DNA of 64,000 nt from Bacteroidales bacterium (GCA_049512815.1 JBEKWS010000008.1:7013-71012); one strand, 5' to 3'. Positions 2,229 through 40,085 are shown, counted from the stretch's first letter. Numbers and translations: made by a program. The notes: generated by a model from the sequence alone, not told the origin.

Positions 2229-3536
2229 ATGAAAAACCTTTTCAGATTATTTTCATTTTTATTTTCGGCTGGATTTCTGCTCACAGCTTGTGAAGGTCCT
2301 ATGGGCCCTGCCGGGACTGCCGGAACAGATGGGAAAGATGCGAATGCGACCTGTACCCAATGTCATAATTCAACCGGTGTTGATTCGGTAAAAACCCAAT
2401 TTGCATATTCAAAACATTCCTATGGCGATGCAAATTTCGAGGAAGTCGGTAGTACAGGTTGTTCCCCTTGCCACGAATCAGAGGCCTTTAAATATGTAGT
2501 TGAAAACAATGTATCAACGGTCTTCTCAATTGTACCTCCTGCAACTACTTATTCCAATCCTTATGCTTCATCTCCTGATAAATCCTACGGCCCTATGCAG
2601 TGCAATATGTGCCATAGCAAATTACATACTACATATACCTTTGCTGATTTCATGCCTCTGACAACTACTGCAGCCGTGCCAATGACCTTTTTCGGTGGTG
2701 CAAAAACCATTGACCTTCCACAGGATGATAGCAAAAGCAATTTATGCGCTAAATGCCATCAACCTCGTCCTTTTACAAATTCAAACACAAATAAGAATGT
2801 ATTGAATTACGCCTTATTAGTAAGCAATCCGACTGCTGTATTCTACGATGCAGCTCAATCCAATAGTCTGAATGTTCTTAAACCCAGTTTCAGAACAAGT
2901 ACACATAATGGTACTACCGCAGCAATATTTGCCGGTATTGGTGGTGTGGAATTCGGAACAGGTTACACCAATTCACAGCATACAACTGTTGCATCATGCC
3001 AGGATTGCCATATGGCACCAATGACAGGAAAAGCCGGGGGACACACATTTTCTGCCCAGGGAAACTTTAACGGATGTAATGTTGCAGGTTGCCATTCGGC
3101 CAATCCTATATCTTCAGCAACTACATCAAAATACTGGAAACAGACCAGAGACGGGGTTAAAGCACAACTCGACCAGTTAGCAGCAAAATTACAGATCGGG
3201 GGCATTGATATTCTAAATAGAAATAGTGATGCGACTTCAAACCTATGGGCCGGACTCACAACAAATAACTATGACGGAAATCTGAATATATATGACCCTG
3301 TCAATAATCCTACCGGCATTGTCTATAATACAACTATGTTTCAGAATACAAGCACTACAGGCTTTACTGCTGAGCAGATCGCAGCTAATAATTTATTACC
3401 AAAAATTACCTTGACGAATGCACAAATGGGAGCTGTTATCAACTTCCAGTTATGCCTCAGAGATTTTAGTTTAGGTATTCATAATGCTGCATATACAACA
3501 ACTTTGTTAGCTAACTCAATAGCAGTACTTCCATAA
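2229..3536 (+). CDS. Multihaem c-type cytochrome lipoprotein with a short collagen-like GXY tract
   Basis: Signal peptide plus lipobox (LLTAC). Five CxxCH sites (CTQCH, CSPCH, CNMCH, CAKCH, CQDCH) plus one CX4CH (CNVAGCH). A GPMGPAGTAGTDGKD tract follows the lipid cysteine. Confidence 0.8.
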   Translation: MKNLFRLFSFLFSAGFLLTACEGPMGPAGTAGTDGKDANATCTQCHNSTGVDSVKTQFAYSKHSYGDANFEEVGSTGCSPCHESEAFKYVVENNVSTVFSIVPPATTYSNPYASSPDKSYGPMQCNMCHSKLHTTYTFADFMPLTTTAAVPMTFFGGAKTIDLPQDDSKSNLCAKCHQPRPFTNSNTNKNVLNYALLVSNPTAVFYDAAQSNSLNVLKPSFRTSTHNGTTAAIFAGIGGVEFGTGYTNSQHTTVASCQDCHMAPMTGKAGGHTFSAQGNFNGCNVAGCHSANPISSATTSKYWKQTRDGVKAQLDQLAAKLQIGGIDILNRNSDATSNLWAGLTTNNYDGNLNIYDPVNNPTGIVYNTTMFQNTSTTGFTAEQIAANNLLPKITLTNAQMGAVINFQLCLRDFSLGIHNAAYTTTLLANSIAVLP

Positions 3537-3671: not shown

Positions 3672-4067
3672 TTACTTCTTCAATGTTCTCAAGTAGTTGA
3701 CAACATTCCAGATATCATTATCTGATAATTTGCCTTCATACTTTGGCATTTCGCTTCTTCCGGTTTTTGTTTTATAAAAAAGATCGCCATCAGCAAGATT
3801 CTGGAATTCAGCTTTAGAAAAATCACCCGGGAATGTTTTAAGAGCCCTGGCTTTTACGCCATCGCCAAGACCAGCTTTCCCATGGCAGGATGCGCAATTC
3901 TTTGTATAAAGATCCATCCCGGTTTTGGTACTTGCGGCACTCTGAGCAATAGGGTTCTTCATTGAACTGGAGTTAGCCGGTACAACCCATGGCTTAGGCT
4001 GTGCCATCAATGTTGCGCTTAACATCAAAACCGAAGCGCTGGCAAATAAAAGTTTCAAAGTTTTCAT
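3672..4067 (-). CDS. Monohaem class I cytochrome c, secreted (paralog A)
   Basis: Signal peptide, a single CASCH site and a distal MPKY methionine. About 71 percent identical to the 7411-7806 product by hand alignment. Confidence 0.85.
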   Translation of the reverse strand: MKTLKLLFASASVLMLSATLMAQPKPWVVPANSSSMKNPIAQSAASTKTGMDLYTKNCASCHGKAGLGDGVKARALKTFPGDFSKAEFQNLADGDLFYKTKTGRSEMPKYEGKLSDNDIWNVVNYLRTLKK

Positions 4068-4581: not shown

Positions 4582-5163
4582 ATGAAGTATAAATTTTACG
4601 AAAACATTAAATTACCCCTTATAATAATAACACTTTTTCTTGTTTTGTTGTTTGGCTGTAAAAATAATGAATCAGACAATAATGGAATAAATAAAATAAA
4701 TAATGAAAAAGAAGAAATTAAAAGTACTGAACAATACAATGAATATGCTGTAGAACCACCTCCCTTCAGCGATGGTATATTTCCCTGCACTGATTGTCAT
4801 AAAAATTTAACTCCGAATCCTGTAAGAAGGGTATTAGTAGATTGGCATAACGATATTTCTGCAATGTTTAATCATGATAGTGAAAATCGTTGGTGTCTTG
4901 ATTGCCATGATCTTAAAAACAGAGATTCTTTAAGGCTTGCAAGTGGAAAATTATTAGATTTTAAGGAATCATATAAACTTTGCGGTCAGTGTCATGGGGA
5001 AAAATACAGAGACTGGAAAGTTGGGGTGCATGGAAAGAGAACTGGTGAATGGAACGGGAAAAAAGAATATTTGCTTTGTGTTAGTTGTCATAATCCTCAC
5101 TCACCAAAATTTAAAGAACTAAAGCCCGAACCGCCGCCAGTTATGCAGGAAGATATTAAATAA
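4582..5163 (+). CDS. Tetrahaem cytochrome c (c3-like) lipoprotein
   Basis: Lipobox LFGC. Four CxxCH sites (CTDCH, CLDCH, CGQCH, CVSCH). First gene of a three-gene plus-strand operon. Confidence 0.85.
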   Translation: MKYKFYENIKLPLIIITLFLVLLFGCKNNESDNNGINKINNEKEEIKSTEQYNEYAVEPPPFSDGIFPCTDCHKNLTPNPVRRVLVDWHNDISAMFNHDSENRWCLDCHDLKNRDSLRLASGKLLDFKESYKLCGQCHGEKYRDWKVGVHGKRTGEWNGKKEYLLCVSCHNPHSPKFKELKPEPPPVMQEDIK

Positions 5164-5189
5164 CTAGAATTATTGAATATTCAGCAAAA

Positions 5190-6080
5190 ATGAAAAACAA
5201 GAATTCAAGAAGATCGTTCATAAAAAATATTTCATTAGCAACATTTTCGGCACTTGCACTTTCAGGTTGTAATTCGGTAGTATTTGATGAATTTCTTCAG
5301 CGAAATTTTAAAACATTATCAAAAAAGGAAAAGGATAAAATAATTAAAAATCTGGAAACTAAATACAAAGAAAAGTACGGTAAAGAATTTCATGTGTCTG
5401 ACAAACCTGCGATAGATGGAACCTTATTTGGATATGCCCTCGATTTATCCAGATGTGTTGGATGCAGGAGATGTGTTTATGCATGTGTTAAAGAAAACAA
5501 TCAGTCGCGTGAGCCTCAAATTCATTATATAGAGGTGCTTCAGATGGAAAAAGAGAAAGGGATAGATTTTGCTCATTCCACTGCTCAGTATAATCCGGAA
5601 AAAGTTCCGGAAAAAGGATATTTTTATGTGCCAGTACAATGCCAGCAGTGTCAAAATCCTCCATGTGTAAAAGTTTGCCCGGTGAAAGCCACATGGCAGG
5701 AACCTGATGGTATTACTGTGGTTGATTACAATTGGTGTATCGGATGCAGGTATTGTATGGCAGCCTGCCCCTATGGAGCAAGGCATTTCAATTGGGGCGA
5801 GCCAAATGTGCCTATTGAAGAATTAAATACTGAAGTGCATTATTTAGGTAACAGGCCAAGAATGAAGGGTGTAGTAGAAAAATGTACTTTTTGTGTTCAA
5901 AGAGCCAGAGAAGGTAAATACCCGGCATGTGTTGAAATATGCCCGGTAGGAGCAAGAAAATTCGGAAATCTTTTGGACCCCGAAAGCGAAATCAGATACA
6001 TATTAGAAAACAAACGAGTAATTGTACTGAAACAGGAATTGAACACACAACCTAAATTCTACTATTTCTTTGGTATCTAA
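5190..6080 (+). CDS. Tat-exported 4Fe-4S ferredoxin-type subunit (NrfC/HybA/PsrB-like)
   Basis: Twin-arginine motif SRRSFIK. Four Cys clusters (CVGCRRCVYAC, CQQCQNPPCVKVCP, CIGCRYCMAACP, CTFC...CVEICP). Confidence 0.85.
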   Translation: MKNKNSRRSFIKNISLATFSALALSGCNSVVFDEFLQRNFKTLSKKEKDKIIKNLETKYKEKYGKEFHVSDKPAIDGTLFGYALDLSRCVGCRRCVYACVKENNQSREPQIHYIEVLQMEKEKGIDFAHSTAQYNPEKVPEKGYFYVPVQCQQCQNPPCVKVCPVKATWQEPDGITVVDYNWCIGCRYCMAACPYGARHFNWGEPNVPIEELNTEVHYLGNRPRMKGVVEKCTFCVQRAREGKYPACVEICPVGARKFGNLLDPESEIRYILENKRVIVLKQELNTQPKFYYFFGI

Positions 6081-6138
6081 ATAAAAGTTAATATTAAAGA
6101 AGCATTTAAAGTAGTTAAAAAAATAAATAGAATTTAAT

Positions 6139-7392
6139 ATGAATTTTATTCGTTTTATAACAGGCAGTATAAAAATAATTTTCCGCGGGAGCAAAACATA
6201 TTATACATGGCTGATCTTTTTGTTATTATTAATACTTTGGGGAGGCTTTGGTTATTCGGGTCAGTTAGCTCACGGGTTAATTAAAACCCACATGCGGGAT
6301 TCTGTATCCTGGGCTTTTTATATTGGAAACTTTACCTTTCTTGTCGGAGTCGCTGCAGCGGCTGTTATGTTAGTCATTCCAGCTTATATTTATGATTGGA
6401 AACCAATTAAAGAAATTGTAATTTTTGGTGAATTGCTGGCTGTCTGTTCTGTTATTATGTGTCTTTCATTTATTATGGTAGATATTGGAAATCCACTCAG
6501 ATTCTGGCACATGCTACCTCTGATAGGCACATTGAACTTTCCATCTTCTATGCTCTCCTGGGATTTTTTCGTTCTTAACATCTATTTATTTCTTAATTTA
6601 TTTGTTGTAACCTATTTATTATATTGTATTTTTTATAAAAAAGAATATAATAAATCAATTGTTTTACCGCTTGTTTTAATCAGCATTCCAATGGCTGTTG
6701 CTATCCATACAACGACAGCATTTCTTTATAATGCCTTACCTGGACGTGCATTCTGGAATAGCGCTTTACTTGCTCCAAGATTTTTAGCATCAGCTTTTTG
6801 CTCAGGTCCGGCTATTCTTTTGATTCTGTTTCAAATACTTAGAAAAACTACTAAGTTCGAAATAAAAGATGAAGCTATTTGGAAAATTGCTGAACTTATG
6901 GTCTATGCCATGTTCATTTACCTGTTTTTTACTATTGCTGAACTTTTTAAAGAGTTCTATTCCGGAACTGAGAATATCTTGTATTGGAAATATTTACTTT
7001 TCGGGATAGGGGAGCACAAAGAAATCGTTCCTTACAGCTGGTCGTCAATTATTATGGGATGTATCGCTTTTATACTTTTCTTAATTCCCAAAACCCGAAA
7101 AAATTTTCTGACTCTTAACATTGGGGCAGTTCTTATATATGGAAGCGTTTATGTAGAAAAAGGAATTGCTCTGATTATTCCTGCATTTACCCCGGATGTT
7201 TTAGGACAGATATATGTATATACCCCATCTATGACTGAAATCAGAACTGCGGTGATGATATTTTCAATTGGATTTTTACTTTTTACCTTTTTATCAAAAA
7301 TTGCTATAGCTATTGTATTTGAAAATTACAATATTGAGAGTCTAAGACCAAAAAAAGAGGCTGCCCAAATTAGTACAGCCTCGAATCTTTAA
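6139..7392 (+). CDS. NrfD/PsrC family polytopic membrane quinone-interacting subunit
   Basis: A 417 aa, highly hydrophobic multi-TM protein directly after the NrfC-like gene. This is the typical NrfCD gene order. Confidence 0.75.
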   Translation: MNFIRFITGSIKIIFRGSKTYYTWLIFLLLLILWGGFGYSGQLAHGLIKTHMRDSVSWAFYIGNFTFLVGVAAAAVMLVIPAYIYDWKPIKEIVIFGELLAVCSVIMCLSFIMVDIGNPLRFWHMLPLIGTLNFPSSMLSWDFFVLNIYLFLNLFVVTYLLYCIFYKKEYNKSIVLPLVLISIPMAVAIHTTTAFLYNALPGRAFWNSALLAPRFLASAFCSGPAILLILFQILRKTTKFEIKDEAIWKIAELMVYAMFIYLFFTIAELFKEFYSGTENILYWKYLLFGIGEHKEIVPYSWSSIIMGCIAFILFLIPKTRKNFLTLNIGAVLIYGSVYVEKGIALIIPAFTPDVLGQIYVYTPSMTEIRTAVMIFSIGFLLFTFLSKIAIAIVFENYNIESLRPKKEAAQISTASNL

Positions 7393-7410
7393 GAAAAAAG
7401 ATTTTCTTCT

Positions 7411-7806
7411 TTACTTCTTCAAAGTTCTTACATAGTTAACAACATTCCAGATATCATCATCTGATAATTTTCCTTCATATTTTGGCATGTCACCTCTTCC
7501 TGTTTTGGTTTTGTAGAAATGTTCTCCATCTGTCTGATTCTGTGATTCTGCTTTTGAAAAGTTCGTTGGGACGGTTTTAAGTGATTTTGCTTTCGGTCCA
7601 TCACCAAGACCAGTTTTTCCATGACATGCAGCACAGGTTTTTGCATAGAGAGACTGTCCTGCTATCGTGCTGGCATCGCTCATGGCAATAGGATTCTTCA
7701 TTGTTTTGAAGTTAGCCGGTACAACCCATGGTTTTGGTTGTGCAACCAAAGAAATGCTCAGAAACATAACTGCTGAGCAGATAAAGATCAATTTAAGAGT
7801 TTTCAT
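7411..7806 (-). CDS. Monohaem class I cytochrome c, secreted (paralog B)
   Basis: Signal peptide and a CAACH site. Same length (131 aa) as the 3672-4067 product and collinear with it. Confidence 0.85.
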   Translation of the reverse strand: MKTLKLIFICSAVMFLSISLVAQPKPWVVPANFKTMKNPIAMSDASTIAGQSLYAKTCAACHGKTGLGDGPKAKSLKTVPTNFSKAESQNQTDGEHFYKTKTGRGDMPKYEGKLSDDDIWNVVNYVRTLKK

Positions 7807-7877
7807 AATCCTCGATTTTAATTTATGTATAAAGATAACAATAACCGTGCAAATAATAATTTCAAAATTATTTAAAA

Positions 7878-8495
7878 TTATTCGTCATCCGAAACATTGT
7901 AGCCCGTTATGATTCCCCTGAAAAGAGAAGTCGGCTTAGTTCCAAGTGTGCAGGTATAAACATGGATTATCATAAATATCGTAAGGAAGAAACCCATTGT
8001 GATATGCAGTATGTCGGTAAGAATAAGACCACTAATGCCAAAAAATGTTGTAATGGTTATTTCAGGTAGCAACAGACCGATTCCTGATATAATAAGTAAA
8101 GGAAAAGCCACATACATGGCGAGTACATAAGTTAACTTTTGAAGTGGATTAAATTTGCGTTCTTCAGTTACAGGAAACGGATGTTTTTCACCTTTGAACA
8201 TTCCACTTGAATAATATTTAAATTGCTTCCGCAGATTTAACAAAAAATCTTTTCTGCCAATTCTGTAATACCTTCCATTATTTGTCAGAAGGTTTCCTGT
8301 AACAAATAATATATAGTTTAAAACCAATACCATAGCAGCAAAATTATGCCATCTTACTGCTTTGGCAAACCCGACAACATAAGAGGCATTTTCTTTATCA
8401 GTATACTGCATACTTAAACCAGTAACAATAAGAATAAGAAACATTATTGCGTTTATAACATGCCAGATCCTGATCCATTTTGGGTAGAGATACAT
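7878..8495 (-). CDS. Membrane b-type cytochrome (cytochrome b561 / HydC-FdnI-like family)
   Basis: About 4-5 TM helices with conserved His in the helices (WHVINAIMF, RWHNFAAMV, DILHITMGFF). Lies 12 nt downstream of the heptahaem gene. Confidence 0.7.
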   Translation of the reverse strand: MYLYPKWIRIWHVINAIMFLILIVTGLSMQYTDKENASYVVGFAKAVRWHNFAAMVLVLNYILFVTGNLLTNNGRYYRIGRKDFLLNLRKQFKYYSSGMFKGEKHPFPVTEERKFNPLQKLTYVLAMYVAFPLLIISGIGLLLPEITITTFFGISGLILTDILHITMGFFLTIFMIIHVYTCTLGTKPTSLFRGIITGYNVSDDE

Positions 8496-8506
8496 CTTCG
8501 TTTCCT

Positions 8507-9508
8507 TTAATAATTATTGTCTTTCTTTCTTATCCGTAATATGATGTGAATGATTATGACACCGATTACAAGAACAAAAATAACCAAACTTATAAGGTTC
8601 AGATATTCATTTCTGTTTGCTCCAATAACATATGATGCATTTAAAATTATTCCGTTAAAGAATCCGTCGCGGCGTTGTTTTTTTGATTCAAATTTATAAA
8701 GTGAGGCCATAAGTATTGAGTTTTTCGAATGACATTCATTACAAAGTTTGATAGCTTCTTCTTTGGGTTTAATCAGATGCGATACAGGAACATTATTGTT
8801 GATTTGAGTGTGGCATTCGATGCATCGTACGTTTGCAAAATGTGAAGTCTGATTAGGCAGCCATTCATGCTTTTGAATAATATTTATCTCTTTTTTATCA
8901 CTCAGAAGCTGAAAACGGCTGAAGTCCGAGTGACAATTCAGACAGATAGCGTTGTCATAAGCAATAGTCTCCTTGAGATTATTATTGTTTCGGACCGAGA
9001 TCTTGTAAGTGTGAGGATTATGGCATTTCCAGCATGAGAATCCATCTCCCTCCATTTTAAAGTGAGTGCTCTTCTGATATTCAGCTTTTATCTCTTCAAA
9101 ATGATATTTCGCAAATTTCTCATCACCACTATGACAATCTATACAATTATACTTTTGCTCCATTCTCAGTTCTCCCGAATGAGGAAATTTTACATACTCT
9201 GCTGAATGACAGTCGGTACAACTGAAGCTCCTGTGATTTGATCTGTAAAATTCATTCTTATGTATAATCAATTCCGAACACATTTGGGCTTTGACCTGTC
9301 TTCCAAGAGTTGCATTAGAGTATTCATACTTCTCCTGTCCGTGACATTTAAAACAGCGGTTGTTATCAGCATCAAAAGGAGAGACAAAGGAAGTTGTGTC
9401 CAAAACTTTACCATTATCTGTTTTGAAACGGAAACTTCCGGCAGAAGGGAGAGAAATTAAATTGATAAAAGCATACAGGATAATTATCCGGAACATAAAT
9501 AATTTCAT
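8507..9508 (-). CDS. Heptahaem c-type cytochrome with a C-terminal membrane anchor
   Basis: Seven CxxCH sites (CFKCH, CTDCH, CIDCH, CWKCH, CLNCH, CIECH, CNECH). N-terminal signal and a C-terminal TM segment LISLVIFVLVIGVIIIHIIL. Confidence 0.85.
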   Translation of the reverse strand: MKLFMFRIIILYAFINLISLPSAGSFRFKTDNGKVLDTTSFVSPFDADNNRCFKCHGQEKYEYSNATLGRQVKAQMCSELIIHKNEFYRSNHRSFSCTDCHSAEYVKFPHSGELRMEQKYNCIDCHSGDEKFAKYHFEEIKAEYQKSTHFKMEGDGFSCWKCHNPHTYKISVRNNNNLKETIAYDNAICLNCHSDFSRFQLLSDKKEINIIQKHEWLPNQTSHFANVRCIECHTQINNNVPVSHLIKPKEEAIKLCNECHSKNSILMASLYKFESKKQRRDGFFNGIILNASYVIGANRNEYLNLISLVIFVLVIGVIIIHIILRIRKKDNNY

Positions 9509-9527
9509 TCCTGATTACTTCATTGAA

Positions 9528-10394
9528 TTAGAATCTGACATGAATATTAAACCCTATCAGCCATTGGCTTTTTTTGAAATCATTCGTGTTGAACACGAGA
9601 TTCCGCTGATTAATAATCTGATCATAGTTGGTTACAAATATCTGGAAAGAATGTGTTGCCGTACCAATTTCCCAACCGAGCGAGAGATTTGGTTTTGGCT
9701 GTACAGCAATACTTTGCTTTGTAAGTAGTTGATCATATTCAATTATCAGCGATTGGGAACCGAATAAATTTGCACGTGCTCCTGCTGAAAGTCCTATGTT
9801 AAGATTCTTATAACCTGCTGTAGAATCTATATTTTGAGGTACGGAATTGAAATATGCCAGCGAAGGAGCTATCTGAACCGAAAACATATTGTTTATTTTG
9901 CGGGCCACAATCAGTTGAGTGAAATAAGATAACCTGTGAATTTGCCTGAAGCTTTCGGCTGGTCCGAAATCTCCTGCCTGTTGTAAATTAACTACGATAT
10001 TGCCATAATATGAAAGTGAAACAGGCATTTTATTATCTTCTGTCTGCCGCAGGATAAGATACTTCCACTGAATATCCTGAAGCTGATAATTCTTTGTTGT
10101 CCCGGCGCCGATCATTAACCTGTCGGTGATGCCATAATTAAGACCTATCCGTGTATTTGCCGAACCATAAATGCCAAAAAGATCATGATAATTTTCAATC
10201 GGGCTGAATCTATGACTTATTTCCAGTTCCAGACCGCCTTTATATGGTGTTTCAACTGTATTAATATCAATAAGAGTGGTCGTTCCAAAAGTAAACCGAA
10301 CAGGTTTTGATGTTACCTGTTTCAGAGTATCTTCCTGCGCGAACAAAGGAGAAATGAATAACGATAAAGTTAAAAAGATAAAAAAGTTTTTCAT
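9528..10394 (-). CDS. Putative outer-membrane beta-barrel protein (resembles DUF5777-type barrels)
   Basis: Signal peptide ending LFAQ, an alternating amphipathic strand pattern and a C-terminal aromatic residue (HVRF). Confidence 0.55.
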   Translation of the reverse strand: MKNFFIFLTLSLFISPLFAQEDTLKQVTSKPVRFTFGTTTLIDINTVETPYKGGLELEISHRFSPIENYHDLFGIYGSANTRIGLNYGITDRLMIGAGTTKNYQLQDIQWKYLILRQTEDNKMPVSLSYYGNIVVNLQQAGDFGPAESFRQIHRLSYFTQLIVARKINNMFSVQIAPSLAYFNSVPQNIDSTAGYKNLNIGLSAGARANLFGSQSLIIEYDQLLTKQSIAVQPKPNLSLGWEIGTATHSFQIFVTNYDQIINQRNLVFNTNDFKKSQWLIGFNIHVRF

Positions 10395-10424
10395 GTTATT
10401 TAGTTTTAACAGGTTAAGATATTT

Positions 10425-10808
10425 CTAATTATTATGGGCTCCCTGGTTGATCCAGTAGAGAACTTCAAGTTTGTCTGCTGCGGTTGACCTTGGAATATGG
10501 GCAGAATTAGTGGTCATTTGATGATACAGTATGCTTGTCGCTCCGGGAGGAGTAATATAGCCCCCACTGCTAAGCGATGTATAAGATTTACCACTCCTGA
10601 GGTCAGGGAATTGAGTCTTTCCATTATGACAAGTGATACAAATGGAGTTGAATATTGGCTGAATATCTGTTTGAAAGTGCCAGGTTTGATTCGGGTCAAC
10701 AGAAGGTGGAGAATATGAATACTTTTCACACGAAGAAAATCCTTCTACTGCCGCAATCAGAACTAATGCAGTTAGTATCTGTCTGATCCTGTTTAATTTC
10801 TGATTCAT
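10425..10808 (-). CDS. Small lipoprotein with a PSCyt1-like monohaem cytochrome c domain
   Basis: Lipobox GFSSC. The motif IQPIFNSICITCHNG...PDLRSG...GGYITPG...LYWINQGA matches the planctomycete-type cytochrome C pattern as I remember it. Confidence 0.65.
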   Translation of the reverse strand: MNQKLNRIRQILTALVLIAAVEGFSSCEKYSYSPPSVDPNQTWHFQTDIQPIFNSICITCHNGKTQFPDLRSGKSYTSLSSGGYITPPGATSILYHQMTTNSAHIPRSTAADKLEVLYWINQGAHNN

Positions 10809-11043
10809 GTTTTTGATATTGTTAATTCGTTCACAAAGATATCTGATTATCCTGATTAATAGTTTTTTATCAGCAACAAATTTGATGCTTACACATGCTC
10901 TTTATCATGTCCAAAATTGATCTTTATCACTCACTCTGATGATATTTATTTTGCCTGAATTTACAAAAAGGATGGTGTAATGAGTGTAGAATAAAAAAAG
11001 GCTTCCTAAAAAGCCTTTTCCCCAATCTTCATTAATACATATT

Positions 11044-12822
11044 TCAGAACTTATAAGCATTATCTTCAATAAGTTTATCAGCGATACGGCGCCTTGCATC
11101 TTTAACATTTACACATTCTACCCGTGAAAGATTTTCAATTGCCTTAATAAGTATCGGGCAGTTTTCCGGTGTTGAGAATGAGCCGATTGCATCAAAAGCC
11201 GATTTTCTGATGATGCTGGCTGTGTCAGACACATTAACGTCAAGCATATCTTTATAAAGTGATACATTCCCTTTCAGTGTTGACATTTTTTCAACTCTTA
11301 GAGCAAGTGATTCAGAGACATATGTTTCCATAATCATTTCAGCTATATTGTTGAGAACCTCCTGTTCTTTTATCAGGTCCTTATCAAATCGTTTTGTTGC
11401 ACCGTGAATACAAATCAGGATAGCCTTTTTGAAGTTCTTGATATATCTTGTTTTTTCCTGAAAATAACTTTCACCTGCTTTTTTACTATCGGTAATAATA
11501 CTTATACCTGAGTAGAGTTTCTCGGCTTCTCCGAACAGGTCAAATTCACCTTTCATTGCACGTTTCAAAGCTGTATCAACAACAAGCAGGCGGTTTATTT
11601 CATTTGTACCTTCAAAAATTCTGTTGATCCTGGAATCACGATAACCTCTTTCCACTGCCATTTCAGCTGAGTATCCCATACCGCCGTGTATCTGAACTGC
11701 CTCATCAGAAACATAATCAAGCATCTCAGATCCCACCACTTTCAGAATTGCTGCCTCAACAGCATAGTGACTGATTGCTTCAATTGAAGCCCTGCCATAA
11801 TCACCGCAATCAACTGTCAGTCTCTTCATCAGAATATCGATATCAAAACTTACTCTGTAAACAGCTGATTCTGAGGCAAAAAGACGAATAACCTGTTCAG
11901 CCATTTTGTGCTTTAATGCTCCAAATGTTGAAATTAAAACTCCAAACTGTTTTCTCTCGTTGGCATATTTAACCGAATCATTAATCGCTTTTTTAGCAGC
12001 TCCAATGACATTAGCTCCAAGCTTAAGACGACCCATGTGAAGGATACTAAGAGCAATCCTGAACCCTTCTCCTCTTTTACCAAGCAGGTTTTCTACCGGC
12101 ACTTTAACATCATTAAAGTAGATCTGGGCCGTTGAAGATCCTTTAATTCCCATTTTGTGCTCATCGGGACCCACAACTACACCCGGGTACTTACTTTCTA
12201 CAATAAACGCACTAAGGACCCTGTCGGTATCAATTTTTGCAAATACCACCAGTGTATCTGCAAATCCGGCGTTTGTGATCCACATCTTCTGTCCGTTAAG
12301 GATATAGAATTTGCCGTCTTCACTTAATTTAGCATTAGTTTTCCCTGAGTTTGCATCGCTTCCGGCACCCGGTTCGGTAAGACAGTATGCTCCGATAAAT
12401 TCACCGGAAGCCAGTTTTGTAACGTAACGCTCCCTTTGATCCTTGTTTCCATAGTACATGATTGGTAAGGTACCAATACCACAATGTGCCATATATGCTA
12501 CGGAAAATGAATAGCCGGCACCTGTTGTTTCAGCCACAAGCATCTGTGTAATGAATGATTGTCCGAATCCGCCAAACTCTTCCGGAATTGATATTCCCAT
12601 TAATCCAAGTTCACCTGACTTTTTAAGTATACTTTTCATCAGTTCCCTGTCACTCTTCTCAACTTTTTCCAGATTGGGATATACTTCAGTTTCAAGAAAG
12701 TCGCGGCATGTCTGAGCAATCATTTTTTGTTCTTCATTGAATTCCTCCGGAATGAAAATATCTTTCGATTCAACTTCGTTTACAAGAAATTCACCGCTTT
12801 TCAAAAGTTTATTGTTTTCCAT
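11044..12822 (-). CDS. Long-form acyl-CoA dehydrogenase (592 aa)
   Basis: Hallmarks of the acyl-CoA dehydrogenase family (CLTEPGAGSD, QIHGGMGY, IFEGTNEI). Last gene of the etf operon. Confidence 0.9.
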   Translation of the reverse strand: MENNKLLKSGEFLVNEVESKDIFIPEEFNEEQKMIAQTCRDFLETEVYPNLEKVEKSDRELMKSILKKSGELGLMGISIPEEFGGFGQSFITQMLVAETTGAGYSFSVAYMAHCGIGTLPIMYYGNKDQRERYVTKLASGEFIGAYCLTEPGAGSDANSGKTNAKLSEDGKFYILNGQKMWITNAGFADTLVVFAKIDTDRVLSAFIVESKYPGVVVGPDEHKMGIKGSSTAQIYFNDVKVPVENLLGKRGEGFRIALSILHMGRLKLGANVIGAAKKAINDSVKYANERKQFGVLISTFGALKHKMAEQVIRLFASESAVYRVSFDIDILMKRLTVDCGDYGRASIEAISHYAVEAAILKVVGSEMLDYVSDEAVQIHGGMGYSAEMAVERGYRDSRINRIFEGTNEINRLLVVDTALKRAMKGEFDLFGEAEKLYSGISIITDSKKAGESYFQEKTRYIKNFKKAILICIHGATKRFDKDLIKEQEVLNNIAEMIMETYVSESLALRVEKMSTLKGNVSLYKDMLDVNVSDTASIIRKSAFDAIGSFSTPENCPILIKAIENLSRVECVNVKDARRRIADKLIEDNAYKF

Positions 12823-12849
12823 CGTTTTCAGATAATTATTTGGACTAAT

Positions 12850-13644
12850 CTATAATTCAAGTGATTGTACAATTAGTTCTGCAATGTCAAGATTTTTGAT
12901 CACTTCTTCTCTGTTTTTATACTTAAGACCATCAGTCAGCATTGTCATACAAAACGGACAGGCAGTTGCAATTACCGTAGCATCAGTCTTAAGGGCATCT
13001 TCAGTTCTCTCTATAAAAATTTCCTTGTTGCCTTTTTCTGCCTCCTTAAACATTTGAGCACCACCGCCTCCACAACATAATGCGAAACTTTTGTTTCTGT
13101 GCATCTCAACCAGATTACCAGTCAGCTTTTTAAGTATAATTCGTGGTTCGTCATATATATCATTTGCTCTTCCGAGATAACATGGATCGTGATAAGTAAT
13201 TGATATATTATTTAATGAAACAGAATCAATTTTTAAATTACCTTCTTCGATATTCCTGTTAAGAAACTGAAGGTAGTTAATAACTTCGTATTCACCGCCG
13301 AGATCAGGATATTCGTTCTTAAAGATGTTGAAACAATGCGGGCAAATGGTAATGATCCTTTTCACATCGTACATTCTGAATATCTCAATTAACCGCAGCG
13401 CCTGCATCTGAAAAAGCATTTCGTTGCCGGCACGTCTTGCAGGATCACCGTTGCAAGTCTCTTCTTTCCCAAGAACAGCATAACTGACATTCAGATACAT
13501 GAGGATTTTCGCAAATGCCCTGACAACCTTTTTGTACCTGTCATCAAAAGCTCCTGCACAACCTACCCAGAATAGGTATTCAGGCTTTTCTCCTCGTGCA
13601 AAAAGGTCTGCCATAACAGGGACTTCAATTTTCCGGGTTTCCAT
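12850..13644 (-). CDS. (Fe-S)-binding protein with CCG domains (HdrD/GlpC-like C-terminal half of an ETF-linked oxidoreductase)
   Basis: Two cysteine-rich CCG-type motifs, including ALCCGGGG. Confidence 0.8.
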   Translation of the reverse strand: METRKIEVPVMADLFARGEKPEYLFWVGCAGAFDDRYKKVVRAFAKILMYLNVSYAVLGKEETCNGDPARRAGNEMLFQMQALRLIEIFRMYDVKRIITICPHCFNIFKNEYPDLGGEYEVINYLQFLNRNIEEGNLKIDSVSLNNISITYHDPCYLGRANDIYDEPRIILKKLTGNLVEMHRNKSFALCCGGGGAQMFKEAEKGNKEIFIERTEDALKTDATVIATACPFCMTMLTDGLKYKNREEVIKNLDIAELIVQSLEL

Positions 13645-13712
13645 TTTTTATCTTTTCTTTAAACTTTTAATTACACAGAGAGCCACAGAAGGTTCACAGA
13701 GGTACACAGAGG

Positions 13713-15032
13713 TTAATGAATATTTAGTTCCAGATCTTTTGCCCAAAGCAGCCTGTCCTCAGCTGAGTATTGCCACGGTGCACCGTTATTTTCTATATTA
13801 TTGAAAACTGTTTTAAGTTCGCCCGGAGCAGATGCTTCCTCCATTACAAGATACCTGCGCATGTCTAAAATCAATATGGGATGGTTAATATTAATAGGGC
13901 ACTCTTTTGCACAGGCATTGCATGTTGTGCAAGCCCAGAGCTCTTCCTCAGAAATATAATCCCTTAACAGAGACCGGTTGTCATTGAAATCTCTTCCGTT
14001 TTTAACCATTGCAGGACCCTTCTCTTTCATTCTTGCTCTCAGGTCCATCATGACTTTCCGGGGGGACAATTTCTTACCGGTGATATTTGCCGGACAGACG
14101 GAAGTGCACCTGCCGCATTCCGTACATGCTAATGAATCAAAATAGTTTTTCCATGAAGTATCTTCTGCGTCTTTCACTCCAAACCGTTCAGGAGGAACAT
14201 CAGAAGCGGTTGCAGTGAAGACTGCATTCGCATCAAGCATGAGTTTTACTTCCCTTGTAATACTGTCCATATTCGGAAGCTTACCAAGCGGATCTAACCT
14301 TGATAGAAACACATTCGGTATTGACATGAACACGTGGAAATGCTTTGAATAGGGTAAAATGTTTGCAAATAGAAATATCAGAAGTATATGGGTCCACCAT
14401 GATGCTTCATACATAAGTCTGAAACTTTCTGCATGACCACCCGTAATGAAACCTGCAATCACTGAGCTGACCGGGAAAAGGCCGACTGAAACATCGCCTG
14501 TAAGTGACTTATATTCAATATACCCGGTATTCATTGTAAGCAGCGAAATCATTAATAGCAGGATTATTGATAATGCAATATTTGCATCAATATGAGAAAT
14601 CCTTTTCATTTCAATACCTTCAAATCTCTTTATATGGAAGAAAATTCTGCGGCTCATGAAAATAATTATTGAAATGGCAACCAGAAGCGCAAAGATATCG
14701 CCGGAAGCCATTATTATTTTATATACAGGTCCCAGGAACTGTAAAACCCTCTCTGTACCTGTAAGTCCGTCAATGACCATTCCTAGACTCCCGAAAATTA
14801 TTACACAAAATCCCCAGAAGACCAGCGCATGAAATAATCCGATTATGGGTCTCCGGAAAATTTTTGTCTGACCAAAGGCAACTGTAAGCATGACTTTTAT
14901 TCTCTTTCCGAAGTCCTTTACCTGGAATGCCGGTCTGGTAAATCTGAAAAACCTGATAATCCTGTTAATTGTGTAAGAAAATGTCCCTATTGTTATCAGG
15001 AGAATGGTTGTAAATACTATCTGTTTTGTCAT
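13713..15032 (-). CDS. Membrane-bound 4Fe-4S dicluster protein (N-terminal half of an ETF-linked Fe-S oxidoreductase)
   Basis: About 5-6 N-terminal TM helices, then CTECGRCTSVCP and CTTCNACAKECP. Confidence 0.8.
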   Translation of the reverse strand: MTKQIVFTTILLITIGTFSYTINRIIRFFRFTRPAFQVKDFGKRIKVMLTVAFGQTKIFRRPIIGLFHALVFWGFCVIIFGSLGMVIDGLTGTERVLQFLGPVYKIIMASGDIFALLVAISIIIFMSRRIFFHIKRFEGIEMKRISHIDANIALSIILLLMISLLTMNTGYIEYKSLTGDVSVGLFPVSSVIAGFITGGHAESFRLMYEASWWTHILLIFLFANILPYSKHFHVFMSIPNVFLSRLDPLGKLPNMDSITREVKLMLDANAVFTATASDVPPERFGVKDAEDTSWKNYFDSLACTECGRCTSVCPANITGKKLSPRKVMMDLRARMKEKGPAMVKNGRDFNDNRSLLRDYISEEELWACTTCNACAKECPININHPILILDMRRYLVMEEASAPGELKTVFNNIENNGAPWQYSAEDRLLWAKDLELNIH

Positions 15033-15039
15033 AGTAAAC

Positions 15040-16011
15040 CTATGTCTTTTTAACTTTTTTTATTGCTTCAACAAGTTTTGGAAGAACTTTCATAGCATCG
15101 CCAATTATACCATATTGGGCCACTTCAAAAATAGGAGCATTTTTATCGGTATTGATAGCAACAATATATTTCGATGAACTGATACCTGCAAGATGCTGTG
15201 TTGCACCTGAAATACCTGCAGCAATATAGAGGTTCGGGGCGATGATCTTACCCGTCTGTCCGGTATGTTCTTCGTGAGGTCTCCAACCTTCATCAGACAC
15301 CGGACGTGAACATGCTGTTGCAGCTCCGAGTAAAGCAGCCAGTTCTACAAGCGGAGACCAGTTGTCGGGCGACTTCATACCCCTTCCGCCAGATACAACA
15401 ATATCTGCATCTGTCAGAAGTATTTTACCTGATTGTTTCTGAACCTCCTTTACCACTGTTTTCAGCAATGACACATCCACGGGCGTATTCAGATTCTCAA
15501 TCGTAGCATTATTGGTTGTTTCAATCAGATCGAAAGAATTCTGAGCCAGTGTGAGTATTTTTACATCGGATTTGATAACCAAATGAGCAAATGCATTCCC
15601 GGAATAAATCCTTTTATAAACAGTGAAAGGATTCAGATTCAAAGGAAGTCTGCTTACACCTGAACCGACACCGGCTTTCAGACGCACAGATAACCTGGGA
15701 GCAATTGCTTTCCCTGTATTATTATTCGATATTAAAATAACTGTGGCGTTTTCTTTCCAGGAGAGCTCAGAGATGACACTTGTATAAGCCTGACTATCAA
15801 GGGTTTTAAACTGATCATTATTAACATTAATGATCTTGTTTGCACCATAGTTCCCAAGCTTATTTAATTCGCCCTCATGAACCTTCCCGATTGATATTGC
15901 GGTTACTGTAGTACTTAGCATTTTTGCAACACCAGATGCATAAGAGACCAGTTCAAAAGAAAGTTTTTTAAATTTCCCATCCCAATTCTCGGTATATACT
16001 AATACTGACAT
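15040..16011 (-). CDS. etfA: Electron transfer flavoprotein alpha subunit
   Basis: EtfA C-terminal FAD-binding signature (PNLYIAAGISGATQHLAG) and position after etfB. Confidence 0.9.
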   Translation of the reverse strand: MSVLVYTENWDGKFKKLSFELVSYASGVAKMLSTTVTAISIGKVHEGELNKLGNYGANKIINVNNDQFKTLDSQAYTSVISELSWKENATVILISNNNTGKAIAPRLSVRLKAGVGSGVSRLPLNLNPFTVYKRIYSGNAFAHLVIKSDVKILTLAQNSFDLIETTNNATIENLNTPVDVSLLKTVVKEVQKQSGKILLTDADIVVSGGRGMKSPDNWSPLVELAALLGAATACSRPVSDEGWRPHEEHTGQTGKIIAPNLYIAAGISGATQHLAGISSSKYIVAINTDKNAPIFEVAQYGIIGDAMKVLPKLVEAIKKVKKT

Positions 16012-16042
16012 ATCGTAGTGATTTATTGTTTTTATCTAATTA

Positions 16043-16792
16043 TCATATAACTTTTGCTTCATTCTGTAAAAGATCAATAAGCTGCGCCGGATTATCCGGA
16101 TCAATATATTTACAGGCCGCACGTGCTGTCGGTTTTTCAAATACAACAATCTGGGTCAATGAATCAATTGCGACTGGTTCAACCAGTTTTACAGGTTTTG
16201 ATCTCGCCATCATAATACCACGCATAGCTGCGATTCGGGGTTCTTTGGCAATACCCTTCTGGACAATAGCAACAAATGGAGCTGGTACTGTTACAACTTC
16301 TTTGCCTCCGTCTATTTCCCTGGTCATAACCGGCTGTCCGTTTTCAATTCTAATACCTGAAACAGCTGAAACTGAAGGAATCCCGAGAAATTCAGAGATC
16401 ATCCCTCCTACTAAGGACCCGTTAAAATCGCTTGATTCAATACCGCACATGATGACATCAAACTGTTCTTTTTTAACCACTTTAGCAATCTGGGCTGCAA
16501 CAAACCAGGCATCAGATGATTCTGCATTTACCCTGATTGCATCATCAGCGCCAATAGCCAGGGCTTTACGGATTGTTGGCTCCGATGTTGCGGGACCAAC
16601 ATGGATGACAGTAACAGATTTTATTCCACTTGCCGTATCCTCTTTAAGTTCAAGGGCACGCGTAAGAGACAATTCGTCCCATGGGTTAATAACCCACTGA
16701 ATACCTGTAGTGTCAATTGAGGCATTTCCTTCGGCAAATTTAATCTTTGTCGTTGTGTCGGGAACATTACTGATACAAACCAGAATTTTCAT
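16043..16792 (-). CDS. etfB: Electron transfer flavoprotein beta subunit
   Basis: EtfB-like N-terminus MKILVCISNVPDTTTKI. 249 aa, upstream of etfA. Confidence 0.9.
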   Translation of the reverse strand: MKILVCISNVPDTTTKIKFAEGNASIDTTGIQWVINPWDELSLTRALELKEDTASGIKSVTVIHVGPATSEPTIRKALAIGADDAIRVNAESSDAWFVAAQIAKVVKKEQFDVIMCGIESSDFNGSLVGGMISEFLGIPSVSAVSGIRIENGQPVMTREIDGGKEVVTVPAPFVAIVQKGIAKEPRIAAMRGIMMARSKPVKLVEPVAIDSLTQIVVFEKPTARAACKYIDPDNPAQLIDLLQNEAKVI

Positions 16793-34908: not shown

Positions 34909-34953
34909 TTTATAATTTTTATTTTCTTTCGGAAGAATTTTTCAAACTTTTCC

Positions 34954-36955: not shown

Positions 36956-36959
36956 TATA

Positions 36960-37685: not shown

Positions 37686-37687
37686 AT

Positions 37688-38560: not shown

Positions 38561-38561
38561 T

Positions 38562-39671: not shown

Positions 39672-39683
39672 AATTCCTGATTG

Positions 39684-39995
39684 TTAATCTCCATAATGAG
39701 ATGAGATCACTACAATGATGAATTCTCCAACTGTATTATCGATGTTTTTCCATTCAATTTCCATTTCGAGTCTGTACTTTCCTGTAAGCCTCATTGAATA
39801 ACGCTTCTTAAATCCTCTTAGTTTTTCAAATTTGAGTCCACTGTCTTTCCAAAAATCATGGATACTGGTTGCTGATTCAATCTTCTGAACTGTTGCAAAG
39901 AATTTGTCAATTACGGTTTCAGGAAGCCTGAGTTTTTTTGAACTCCCTGTTTCGTAAAGTTTAATTAACTCTTTATCATTTATTTGGACATTCAA
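39684..39995 (-). CDS. HigB-like (RelE/ParE superfamily) toxin with a TTG start
   Basis: 103 aa with the pattern ...FEKLRGFKKRYSMRLTGKYRLEMEI...SSHYGD, typical of killer-protein HigB. Directly upstream of the HTH gene. Confidence 0.65.
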   Translation of the reverse strand: MNVQINDKELIKLYETGSSKKLRLPETVIDKFFATVQKIESATSIHDFWKDSGLKFEKLRGFKKRYSMRLTGKYRLEMEIEWKNIDNTVGEFIIVVISSHYGD

Positions 39996-40010
39996 TGATT
40001 AAATGTTTTA

Positions 40011-40045
40011 CAAATATACACCTAATTGGTTAAAATGCAAATATA
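40011..40045 (-). promoter_or_regulatory. Two exact TATATTTG (TAnnTTTG) -7 boxes upstream of the HigB-like gene
   Basis: Plus-strand caaatata at 40011-40018 and 40038-40045. Confidence 0.4.
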
Positions 40046-40048
40046 TAT

Positions 40049-40065: not shown

Positions 40066-40085
40066 TATGTGATATAATATTCGAA

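Follow-up and report, generated by a model that had tools for sequence, protein, structure and literature searches.

The gene cluster described here looks like a new way for Bacteroidota to send respiratory electrons to the cell's edge. To our knowledge, no outer-membrane electron-transfer component has been established for this phylum, whose members abound in peat, sediments, guts and reactors and often become enriched on electrodes and where iron or humics are plentiful. We tentatively suggest, with rather less than even confidence, that the locus is an outlet, in which menaquinol electrons would pass via cytochromes to haems at the periplasmic mouth of an outer-membrane barrel, where a small soluble acceptor would be reduced. 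A CbcBA-type menaquinol:cytochrome c oxidoreductase (g4 and g3) would oxidise quinol at its dihaem cytochrome b, g4, and the electrons would climb the seven bis-His haems of g3 into the periplasm. The outer-membrane core would be a 12-stranded DUF5777 barrel (g2) with a dedicated monohaem lipoprotein (g1). A class I cytochrome c (g5 and its paralogue at 3672-4067) would dock on the barrel's periplasmic face, and an outer-membrane-tethered six-haem lipoprotein (2229-3536) probably helps to span the periplasm. The last step most likely follows the scheme proposed for Cyc2, because the barrel is too narrow for a cytochrome and both lipoproteins lack a surface-export signal: the haems would sit at the periplasmic mouth, and a small soluble oxidant would come to them at the barrel or through it. 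Candidate oxidants in a peat fen would be Fe(III) in organic complexes or a small quinone. The whole island is probably under a Crp/Fnr regulator. The scheme is built on observed gene content, cofactor motifs, co-conservation and fusions and on the modelled barrel fold; in it we infer the localisation of the proteins, their partner contacts, the direction of flow and the substrate.

The window, a stretch of 64,000 nucleotides, comes from a Bacteroidales bacterium of a peat fen. Five open reading frames on its minus strand were found at exactly the coordinates and with the features that the initial annotation had given them. In order of transcription, they encode a small monohaem lipoprotein cytochrome (g1, 10425..10808; 127 aa, lipobox SSC, one CITCH), an outer-membrane beta-barrel of the DUF5777 family, PF19089 (g2, 9528..10394; 288 aa, signal peptide, C-terminal Phe), a CbcA-like heptahaem cytochrome c (g3, 8507..9508; 333 aa, seven CxxCH, C-terminal transmembrane helix), a CbcB-like dihaem cytochrome b (g4, 7878..8495; 205 aa, PF01292, HydC/FdnI/PhsC type) and a secreted class I monohaem cytochrome c (g5, 7411..7806; 131 aa, PF13442/PF00034), separated by gaps of 30, 19, 11 and 71 nt. 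The block had been proposed to be an operon, and it is indeed framed on both sides by terminator-like hairpins on the minus strand, each with a U-run. The one at the 5' boundary (10985..11045; z -3.09) follows the upstream acyl-CoA dehydrogenase gene, and the one at the 3' boundary (7345..7412; GAGGCUG...CAGCCUC, then U7; z -2.75) follows g5 and is shared with a convergent NrfD-like gene. The same analysis detected no RNA structure in the 71-nt gap between g4 and g5. A putative -7 promoter, TATCTTTG, lies on the minus strand 26 nt before the start of g1 (10834..10841) and fits TAnnTTTG, which we take to be the Bacteroidetes -7 consensus; a second match on that strand precedes g5 (7863-7870). 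Such matches are not enriched within the window (67 found, 81 expected), and the promoter evidence is weak.

The inner-membrane pair had been likened to CbcBA, and its architecture agrees with the published one. The heptahaem protein g3 has seven CxxCH motifs and seven conserved distal His, i.e. seven bis-His haems, and its C-terminal transmembrane anchor carries His321 in 53 of 53 sequences; the cytochrome is predicted to face the periplasm. Its partner g4 matches PF01292 (E 1e-23) and has four transmembrane helices, with His12, His50, His164 and His178 conserved in 57 sequences; its best NCBIfam model is PhsC, at 166 bits, below the cut-off of 204. By its description, CbcBA of Geobacter sulfurreducens (GSU0593/GSU0594) likewise has a seven-haem periplasmic cytochrome c with a His in its C-terminal helix, and CbcB is likewise a dihaem cytochrome b with four helices, of a type that annotations usually call thiosulfate-reductase-like. 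In both systems, the b-type gene has the c-type gene directly upstream. The paper on CbcBA presents it as an inner-membrane bc-type cytochrome, places it among quinol oxidoreductases and mentions homologous clusters in Bacteroidetes; CbcBA is described as working outward. Nevertheless, the two systems differ in three respects. First, g4 itself has four conserved His in addition to the anchor His of g3, whereas the Geobacter protein pair is described as having three plus one. Second, no sigma-54/BccR-type response regulator was found in or beside the g1-g5 operon, which has a Crp/Fnr regulator nearby instead. Third, g3 and g4 lie in a putative operon with an outer-membrane barrel and a haem lipoprotein, both of which are missing from the Geobacter operon.

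The barrel g2 covers the entire Pfam model of DUF5777 (positions 1-247 of 247; 230.4 bits against a cut-off of 23.1, E 2.6e-68), a family spread over Bacteroidota and Rhodothermota in about 1,280 clusters at 50% identity. AlphaFold2 models it confidently (pLDDT 92.2) with 12 strands, whose periplasmic turns are short and whose outer loops are longer, and not as an 8-stranded barrel of the OmpA/OmpW type, a type that the initial annotation had named as counting against its own reading. The nearest folds to the model are the 12-stranded NanC, KdgM, FapF and Tsx (TM ~0.5, ≤10% identity). A profile search found no relative in the PDB, the Pfam search gave no match of g2 to MtrB, OmbB or other known porin families, and no paper in the literature searched names DUF5777. 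Lumen-facing positions of the model are mostly Gly, Ser, Asn and Gln, and many of the Gly are conserved. Moreover, an N-terminal segment of ~34 aa is conserved and confidently modelled, and may plug the lumen; given this possible plug, an open channel through the barrel is putative.

These features bear on whether the locus might be a trans-outer-membrane conduit, in which the barrel would thread or anchor a lipoprotein cytochrome (g1 or the six-haem protein) with its haem on the cell surface. The threading could use the Pro-rich tether of g1 or the Gly-Pro tether of the six-haem protein, for which Mtr, Pcc and Ext conduits and RcsF threaded in porins may be compared; the acceptors could be insoluble Fe(III)/Mn(IV), humics or partner cells. 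We regard such a conduit as improbable. The caution that the barrel is far too small to sheathe a multihaem protein was well placed: the haem domain does not fit a 12-stranded barrel, whose lumen may already hold its own N-terminal segment, whereas the MtrAB barrel, with 26 strands, sheathes a multihaem protein. In comparison with MtrCAB, PioAB/MtoAB and Geobacter Pcc/Ext, the locus offers only 12 strands in 288 aa, and its lipoproteins lack a surface-export signal. The gene set does agree with conduit clusters as they are defined in the literature, namely by a periplasmic cytochrome, an integral outer-membrane protein and one or more redox lipoproteins (10.1101/169086). Furthermore, the six-haem lipoprotein is co-conserved and fast-evolving, the invariant 'SCEKY' and 'CEGP' starts of the two lipoproteins together with the conserved lumen Gly could accommodate a threaded linker, and, in other lineages, DUF5777 adjoins proteins that have redox-type domains and leave the cell through the type IX secretion system (T9SS).

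The lipoprotein g1 argues in the same direction as the size of the barrel. Its lipobox Cys27 is followed by an unstructured, Pro-rich tether of ~18 aa and then by a four-helix domain; C57xxC60H61 is the predicted haem-binding motif and His104 the likely distal ligand. It starts C-E-K-Y-S and thus lacks the Bacteroidota export signal, taken as C-X-K-(D/E)2 or SDDDD; therefore, it probably faces the periplasm. The earlier label 'PSCyt1-like' finds no support for g1, which has no Pfam match at E ≤ 0.1, including to PSCyt1 (PF07635); its relatives score 17.9-20.8 bits against that model, whose cut-off is 22. A Pfam family is recorded for none of the 120 listed homologues. The lipobox and a CX2-4CH haem motif are kept in every lineage examined, and phmmer places the gene beside a barrel gene in 68 of 78 loci, as inspection by eye does for most of the others. 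The second His (H104) is invariant in the Bacteroidales clade, which suggests a low potential, and in aerobic lineages a Met-Pro motif replaces it.

The barrel's periplasmic end is also where gene fusions place a cytochrome. In at least 67 clusters (90% identity), a class I cytochrome c similar to g5 is fused to the N-terminus of DUF5777, so that the fused cytochrome sits at the periplasmic end of the barrel, a further point against a conduit. The N-terminal domain of one such fusion, P0239, is 37% identical to g5 (E 2e-26), and in all four fusion loci examined a g1-like lipoprotein gene comes next. This layout resembles the published model of Cyc2, in which a monohaem cytochrome is placed at the periplasmic mouth of a porin; the resemblance is literal in the fusion clusters, which are found only in relatives, and in the window the layout is split into separate genes. 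In both Cyc2 and DUF5777, the barrel is too small for a haem domain to span, and the substrate therefore must come through the pore. However, the Cyc2 porin is predicted to be 16-stranded and to resemble OprO/OprP, whereas g2 has 12 strands and is closest to NanC, KdgM, FapF and Tsx. In addition, the cytochrome domain of the DUF5777 fusions is a full class I fold (PF13442/PF00034), and DUF5777 nearly always comes with a second, lipid-anchored monohaem partner (g1). No literature linking the two families was found. Fused and split forms offer a natural comparison with Cyc2 of how a single haem beside a small barrel exchanges electrons with the exterior.

The same layout could also be read as a split analogue of Cyc2 working inward, which would oxidise dissolved Fe(II) or reduced humics and pass the electrons via class I cytochromes c. 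The endpoint of such a flow could be a terminal reductase or oxidase, or, uphill, the quinone pool. His/Met class I cytochromes c usually have a high potential, and g5 (haem motif CAACH, Met ligand in GRGDMP) belongs to this type of carrier; its predicted place between low-potential bis-His haems fits oddly with an outward chain. Besides the fusions and g5, inward flow would be in keeping with the Met-Pro motif in g1 of aerobic lineages, with the proximity of the set to alternative complex III (ACIII) in some cases and with the abundance of Fe(II) in fens. Still, we give it little credence: the suggested low potential of g1 in Bacteroidales, the partner modules predicted to oxidise quinol, the outward action described for CbcBA and the lack of oxidase or carbon-fixation genes near the locus all speak against it.

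Comparison of loci shows which parts of the cluster belong together. The order lipoprotein, barrel, heptahaem cytochrome and cytochrome b, whose co-conservation had been proposed as a check, recurs in about 43 of the 56 loci with enough flanking DNA, down to ~40% barrel identity, and the arrangement is thus not due to chance. Conserved adjacency within related Bacteroidales could partly reflect shared ancestry. By gene neighbourhoods, the lipoprotein-barrel pair is the actual core, to which interchangeable inner-membrane modules are added. Three loci have g1, the barrel and a monohaem cytochrome c without CbcBA (L011, L012, L062); in L064 this trio has an ACIII-like set as its neighbour, in L076 it occurs together with FeS/NrfD genes, and a 92%-identical relative (L003) has FeS and NrfD genes and a 297-aa gene inserted. 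FeS and NrfD modules of the NrfCD/DsrOP/NosGH type, or alternative complex III, replace or join CbcBA beside the barrel in related loci, whereas the FeS/NrfD module of the window is convergent and lies outside the five-gene operon. Judged by homology, the CbcBA-like, FeS/NrfD and ACIII-like partners all resemble quinol:cytochrome c modules, in keeping with outward electron flow. Some DUF5777 loci contain cupredoxins, one of them exported via T9SS; an EB_dh/cytochrome c protein is found in L076 and a Reeler protein with CxxCH in L082.

In aerobic Flavobacteriia and Chitinophagia, DUF5777 and g1 are also found, there in the company of YceI-like proteins and without a quinol oxidase close by, and thus the general role of the family may not be respiration. 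One could imagine a redox accessory for uptake or protection, to which CbcBA would merely supply reducing power; a reduction that frees Fe or Cu from chelates coming in through the barrel, handling of lipophilic quinones or isoprenoids, and detoxification of reactive oxygen would be examples. YceI proteins have been reported to bind isoprenoids or quinones, and a YceI-like (PF04264) gene lies directly upstream of the barrel gene in ten distant loci. HupE/UreJ_2 genes near the barrel in L077 and L084, a TonB-dependent receptor in L083 and the wide occurrence of DUF5777 in aerobes that have no evident reason to respire extracellularly point the same way. We consider such an accessory role unlikely for the Bacteroidales locus, where the island exceeds what it would need: two to three quinol modules, carriers in duplicate, a six-haem protein, its own regulator and cytochrome biogenesis genes.

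It is possible, if somewhat doubtful, that DUF5777 and its lipoprotein form a redox module of the outer membrane that is phylum-wide in Bacteroidota and Rhodothermota and has so far gone unrecognised. It would combine with swappable quinol modules and carriers, and may carry electrons over the outer membrane by a mechanism different from those of Mtr and Cyc2. Its carriers would comprise class I cytochromes, cupredoxins, YceI-like proteins and T9SS surface proteins. The lipoprotein tether might then be threaded through the 12-stranded barrel, or electrons might be relayed via conserved His/Tyr residues at both barrel rims. The six-haem lipoprotein, on its collagen-like stalk, might be a length-tunable periplasmic bridge. 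If the outlet that we favour is real, DUF5777 with the haem lipoprotein, optionally with a CbcBA-like pair, would be an easily recognised marker for screening metagenomes, a role would be assigned to two families without a described function (DUF5777 and that of g1), and the cluster could help to explain carbon turnover in methane-emitting fens.

The initial annotation had treated the five genes as the unit; the genes and their order stand, but the functional unit is larger and takes in a six-haem lipoprotein and a second class I cytochrome c, as well as a Crp/Fnr regulator and ccsBA. Between g5 and the second class I cytochrome c (3672..4067, minus strand; 71% identical to g5) lies a convergent three-gene quinone module on the plus strand (4582..7392), which holds the same place in L003, L008, L014, L016, L054 and L068; relatives carry both cytochrome copies in tandem. 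The module encodes a tetrahaem lipoprotein c (4582-5163), a Tat-exported, DsrO-like FeS protein (5190-6080; DsrO score 193, below the cut-off of 200) and a DsrP-like membrane subunit of the NrfD type (6139-7392; 401.9 bits for DsrP, where the cut-off is 350). A DsrMKJOP complex was rejected for these genes, as there is no DsrM/DsrK or catalytic subunit, DsrO is below threshold and the cytochrome has four haems. The six-haem lipoprotein (2229..3536, plus strand; five CxxCH and CNVAGCH) has an invariant 'CEGP' at its lipid Cys followed by a collagen-like (G-X-Y)n tether, and its start, C-E-G-P, lacks the Bacteroidota export signal. It evolves fast (29% identity, against 72-80% for its neighbours) and is found in 38 loci; in L059-L061, L065 and L066 it lies directly upstream of g1 in the same operon. 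The Crp/Fnr-family regulator gene (1326..2093, minus strand) is co-conserved with the cluster in 38 loci, and a fused ResB/CcsA (system II, ccsBA) cytochrome c biogenesis gene, which runs out of the window and has its 5' part at 1..1226 (minus strand), shows 72% identity to its homologue in L001 and is co-conserved in 27. Upstream of g1, an acyl-CoA dehydrogenase, a CCG protein, a membrane FeS protein and ETF alpha/beta are encoded on the minus strand (11044..16792). The adjacency of this acyl-CoA dehydrogenase/ETF block of a heterotroph, which speaks against inward flow, is kept in 48 loci, and the block is a possible electron source for the outlet.

All five minus-strand reading frames of the cytochrome cluster lie exactly where the initial annotation had placed them, and its interpretation, an operon joining a CbcBA-like inner-membrane pair to an outer-membrane barrel and a haem lipoprotein, is partly supported overall. 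Searched against Pfam and NCBIfam, the first product (10425-10808, 127 aa), which carries a lipobox (…GFSSC) and one CITCH motif, belongs to no family; the second (9528-10394, 288 aa), which has a signal peptide and ends in Phe, matches DUF5777 (PF19089, 'membrane bound beta barrel') over the full model length (E 2.6e-68); the third (8507-9508, 333 aa), with seven CxxCH motifs and a hydrophobic C-terminal helix, matches only generic multihaem families; the fourth (7878-8495, 205 aa) is a PF01292 cytochrome b whose best curated model is that for PhsC, a thiosulfate-reductase cytochrome b, scoring 166 bits where the cut-off is 204; and the fifth (7411-7806, 131 aa) is a class I monohaem cytochrome c with a signal peptide, a CAACH motif and matches to PF13442 and PF00034. 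The intergenic gaps are 30, 19, 11 and 71 nt in this order. The boundaries of the unit are directly supported, since the acyl-CoA dehydrogenase gene upstream is followed by a strong hairpin with a U-run (z -3.1) and the class I cytochrome gene by a second one (z -2.75), and the 71-nt gap is without structure in the same analysis; the hairpins thus bracket the five genes as one unit, in agreement with the proposed co-transcription. The class I cytochrome possibly has an internal promoter of its own. TAnnTTTG, the Bacteroidetes -7 promoter consensus, occurs 26 nt 5' of the lipoprotein gene and again 5' of the class I cytochrome gene; it is not enriched within the window, and a sigma-70 promoter scan is uninformative for Bacteroidota.

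The cofactor motifs of the inner-membrane pair are directly supported by an alignment of 53 to 57 homologues from related genomes. In the heptahaem cytochrome all seven CxxCH motifs and seven further histidines are invariant, which implies seven bis-His haems, and H321, within the C-terminal transmembrane helix, is conserved at 100%. The cytochrome b conserves His12 (TM1), His50 (TM2) and, 14 residues apart in TM4, His164 and His178, a pattern that in FdnI/HydC cytochromes binds two b haems. The Geobacter quinol oxidoreductase CbcBA (GSU0593/0594) has been described as a b-type cytochrome that has two haems and four transmembrane helices, together with a seven-haem c subunit whose C-terminal anchor helix supplies one His; its homologues are commonly annotated as thiosulfate-reductase-like, and homologous clusters in Bacteroidetes (Prolixibacter, Marinilabiliales, Labilibaculum) have been known since 2021 (bioRxiv 10.1101/2021.04.15.440034). 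Because our pair matches this description (a seven-haem c with a His-bearing anchor helix and a PF01292 b), the label 'CbcBA-like' is supported, the likeness being one of architecture as described. However, the sigma-54 regulator present in Geobacter is absent here, and the b subunit has four His rather than three. Among PDB sequences the cytochrome b found no match, and the heptahaem cytochrome found none besides a weak one to 28pb_A ('Cytochrome c', 278 aa, E 5e-5), covering five haem motifs.

The barrel fold is directly supported by an AlphaFold2 model built on a 57-sequence alignment (pLDDT 92.2, pTM 0.85), with 12 strands joined by short turns at one side and by longer loops at the opposite side. 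A closed eight-stranded OmpA/OmpW-like barrel, which would have told against the proposed electron route, can therefore be rejected. Nor is the barrel an MtrB-like sheath, and the initial annotation was right to caution that, being much smaller than MtrB/PCC porins, it cannot simply sheathe a decahaem protein. Foldseek found only generic 12- to 16-stranded barrels in the PDB, the nearest being NanC, KdgM, FapF and Tsx (TM ~0.5, identity for these at most 10%), and the DUF5777 profile matched no PDB sequence. Judged from strand alternation rather than coordinates, Gly, Ser, Asn and Gln predominate at the positions facing the lumen, several of the Gly being conserved. The two most conserved His are predicted, from strand alternation only, to face the lipid at opposite rims, so that their joint binding of one haem is unlikely. 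An N-terminal segment of ~34 residues, conserved and confidently modelled, forms isolated beta-bridges and so may act as a plug. The family comprises 1,279 representatives at 50% identity (E <= 1e-3). One protein (P0129, 615 aa) carries two complete DUF5777 barrels in tandem.

The most constant partner of this barrel is the lipoprotein cytochrome, and their strong co-conservation is directly supported: of 78 loci, drawn from the best 80 of 417, phmmer finds a homologue adjoining the barrel in 68, and in most of the remainder one was seen by eye. In their alignment the lipobox Cys, a Cys…Cys-His and a C-terminal W-I-x-x-G-A-x-N-N are retained, the first two invariantly. Members seemingly without CxxCH carry CX3CH or CX4CH instead (CTASCH, CATANCH, CNFDECH, CAVVGCH, CAGGGCH) and span several lineages (e.g. 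L069 6929-7303, L076 3939-4328 and L077 7049-7423), so that, to judge by these motifs, haem attachment is conserved family-wide. The likely distal ligand switches: H104, the second His, is invariant in the Bacteroidales clade, whereas a Met-Pro motif replaces it in that region in the aerobic Flavobacteriia, Chitinophagia and Rhodothermia. The difference suggests ligation by His/His in the one group and by His/Met in the other, and hence different working potentials. No Pfam domain was found on any of 120 homologues among the matches listed; the AlphaFold2 model, from an alignment of database homologues, is of moderate quality (pLDDT 75.5), with a tether of ~18 residues before a four-helix domain that matches only cytochrome c6, weakly and non-significantly.

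Experimentally defined Bacteroidota lipoprotein export signals are C-X-K-(D/E)2, SDDDD or SDFFE-like SDDFE (PMC5080379). In the lipoprotein cytochrome the sequence from the lipid Cys, C-E-K-Y-S, meets none of them, so the protein probably faces the periplasm. A true surface-exposed conduit, in which a lipoprotein would be threaded or anchored, sits poorly with this orientation and with a 12-stranded barrel too small for a haem domain, and we consider it unlikely.

The related loci indicate that the unit is modular. Scanning one genome per species with an 11-sequence barrel alignment gave 417 loci; the best 80, which we kept, are all from Bacteroidota or Rhodothermota, nearly all of them MAGs, and barrels from 'fen' Bacteroidales MAGs are 92% identical to that of the window. 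When window proteins were searched against six-frame ORFs of the 56 loci with enough flanking DNA, the order lipoprotein-barrel-heptahaem-cytochrome b-monohaem c recurred in 18; 13 had the same set with genes for an FeS protein (~320 aa), an NrfD (~440 aa) and a 297-aa protein between cytochrome b and monohaem c; and in nine the monohaem c was missing within 6.5 kb. The proposed co-conservation thus holds in most of the 56 loci, and the window operon looks like the abbreviated version of a modular locus. The insert is illustrated by L003 (10532-13734), which has a 92%-identical barrel: here the FeS protein has 320 aa and is Tat-exported, the NrfD-type protein has 442 aa, and the 297-aa protein is secreted, carries a C-terminal transmembrane helix and belongs to no family. 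Furthermore, L011, L012 and L062 keep lipoprotein, barrel and monohaem c with the CbcBA genes absent, in L064 (Vicingus) this trio lies directly 5' of an ACIII-like set, and in L076 the barrel is paired with FeS/NrfD and an EB_dh/cytochrome c protein. The interchangeability of the quinol modules is therefore directly supported, the inner-membrane partner being swappable, and the constant element throughout these arrangements is the lipoprotein-barrel pair. In L001, an 80%-identical relative, two IS110-family transposase genes separate the acyl-CoA dehydrogenase gene from the lipoprotein gene (5816-8950), with the cytochrome cluster intact.

Fusion of the barrel to a cytochrome of the fifth gene's type is directly supported too. 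In P0239, a DUF5777 representative of 407 aa, the N-terminal part is a class I cytochrome c domain 37% identical to the fifth protein (E 2e-26), and a search with P0239 found PF13442/PF00034-PF19089 fusions in at least 67 distinct 90%-identity clusters (P0239, P0271-P0338; 393-452 aa), one from a Lutibacter MAG. These fusions link the class I cytochrome to the barrel. In all four fusion loci examined (L082-L085) a lipoprotein cytochrome gene follows, and in two of them the neighbours are unrelated housekeeping genes. Since the barrel N-terminus is periplasmic, the fused cytochrome would lie on the periplasmic side. For Cyc2 it was proposed that a cytochrome sits at the periplasmic mouth of a 16-stranded porin, an arrangement that requires Fe2+ to enter the pore (10.1101/228056). 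The DUF5777 fusions share this layout on an apparently different barrel family; the logic is that of porin-cytochrome and Cyc2 systems, but the parts are apparently unrelated and much smaller, and the likeness to Cyc2 is one of layout. A flow of electrons inward, with Fe(II) or reduced humics oxidised as by Cyc2, would suit this layout; set against the recurrent quinol modules, we find it improbable.

The cluster belongs to a wider island. Convergent to the class I cytochrome gene is a tetrahaem-lipoprotein/FeS/NrfD module (4582-7392; DsrP model 401.9 bits, DsrO 193 bits), for which a Dsr complex was rejected, DsrM and DsrK being absent. Beyond it lie another class I cytochrome c (3672-4067), which shares 71% identity with the first, a six-haem lipoprotein (2229-3536, plus strand; five CxxCH and a CNVAGCH), a Crp/Fnr regulator (1326-2093) and the beginning of a fused ResB/CcsA gene, cut off by the edge of the window. 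Co-conservation of the regulator, the biogenesis gene and the six-haem lipoprotein is directly supported, as among the best 80 of 417 loci they occur in 38 (regulator), 27 (ccsBA) and 38 (six-haem lipoprotein). The six-haem gene lies directly 5' of the lipoprotein cytochrome gene, in the same operon, in L059-L061, L065 and L066, and is kept with it and the barrel in L020, where CbcBA is absent. The co-conserved six-haem proteins (e.g. L058 15036-15740, L050 14374-15444) all start C-E-G-P, with ~2 to 11 collagen-like triplets (G-X-Y) separating this start from the first haem motif, and this run of variable length could serve as a stalk or tether of tunable length. The six-haem protein of the window is only 29% identical to that of L001, against 72-80% for neighbouring genes. 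It has no match among PDB sequences; NrfA was rejected, as it has no NCBIfam match and no CxxCK. The N-terminal start of a dihaem lipoprotein in L064 (3215-4126) resembles that of the six-haem proteins. Directly upstream of the cluster, on the minus strand (11044-16792), are genes for an acyl-CoA dehydrogenase, a CCG-domain protein, a membrane FeS protein and ETF alpha/beta, a set resembling the ETF:menaquinone oxidoreductase arrangement of syntrophs. They adjoin the cluster in 48 of the best 80 of 417 loci and are a plausible source of menaquinol, although the adjacency may simply be inherited.

We speculate that the CbcBA-like pair would oxidise menaquinol, and that electrons would pass through the class I cytochrome(s), perhaps via the stalked six-haem lipoprotein, to the lipoprotein cytochrome at the periplasmic mouth of the barrel, where a small soluble oxidant would be reduced. 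This reading as a whole is the best we can offer, but a tentative one. Against it count the possible plug in the barrel model, the His/Met ligation of the class I cytochrome, which suggests a high potential, and the presence of DUF5777 in aerobes too. In the searched literature, no paper contained 'DUF5777' or 'PF19089', the Bacteroidetes extracellular electron-transfer clusters found have gene sets that differ from this locus, and neither the DUF5777 barrel nor the haem lipoprotein obligately paired with it, the fusions of cytochrome and barrel or the collagen-tethered six-haem lipoprotein were found described.

A distant branch of the family hints that its general role may be broader than respiration. 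Ten loci (within L069-L080; e.g. 6929-8798 in L069, from Flavihumibacter profundi KCTC 62290), from Chitinophagaceae, Saprospiraceae, Flavobacteriales, Balneolaceae and Rhodothermia, have the order lipoprotein cytochrome, YceI-like protein (PF04264), DUF5777; in E. coli, yceI has as its partner a cytochrome b561 gene of PF01292, the family of our cytochrome b. L080 encodes a T9SS-exported plastocyanin-like cupredoxin beside DUF5777 (5985-8894) and a lipoprotein cupredoxin too, and T9SS Reeler-domain proteins adjoin DUF5777 at L079 6158-7009 and L082 5457-6245 (the latter with CALCH), the sorting domain of these cupredoxin and Reeler proteins being Por_Secre_tail. Redox carriers are thus a recurring theme near the barrel. 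HupE/UreJ_2 genes lie near DUF5777 in L077 and L084. A non-respiratory role in uptake or protection would accommodate this branch and the occurrence in aerobes; given the large island in which the pair is embedded in Bacteroidales, it seems to us a doubtful account. Elsewhere in the window, the minus-strand region 33424-42863 holds a type I restriction-modification system (HsdM, HsdS, HsdR), accompanied by an HTH/peptidase M78 gene and two ORFs (36960-37685 and 37688-38560, the latter without a family match).
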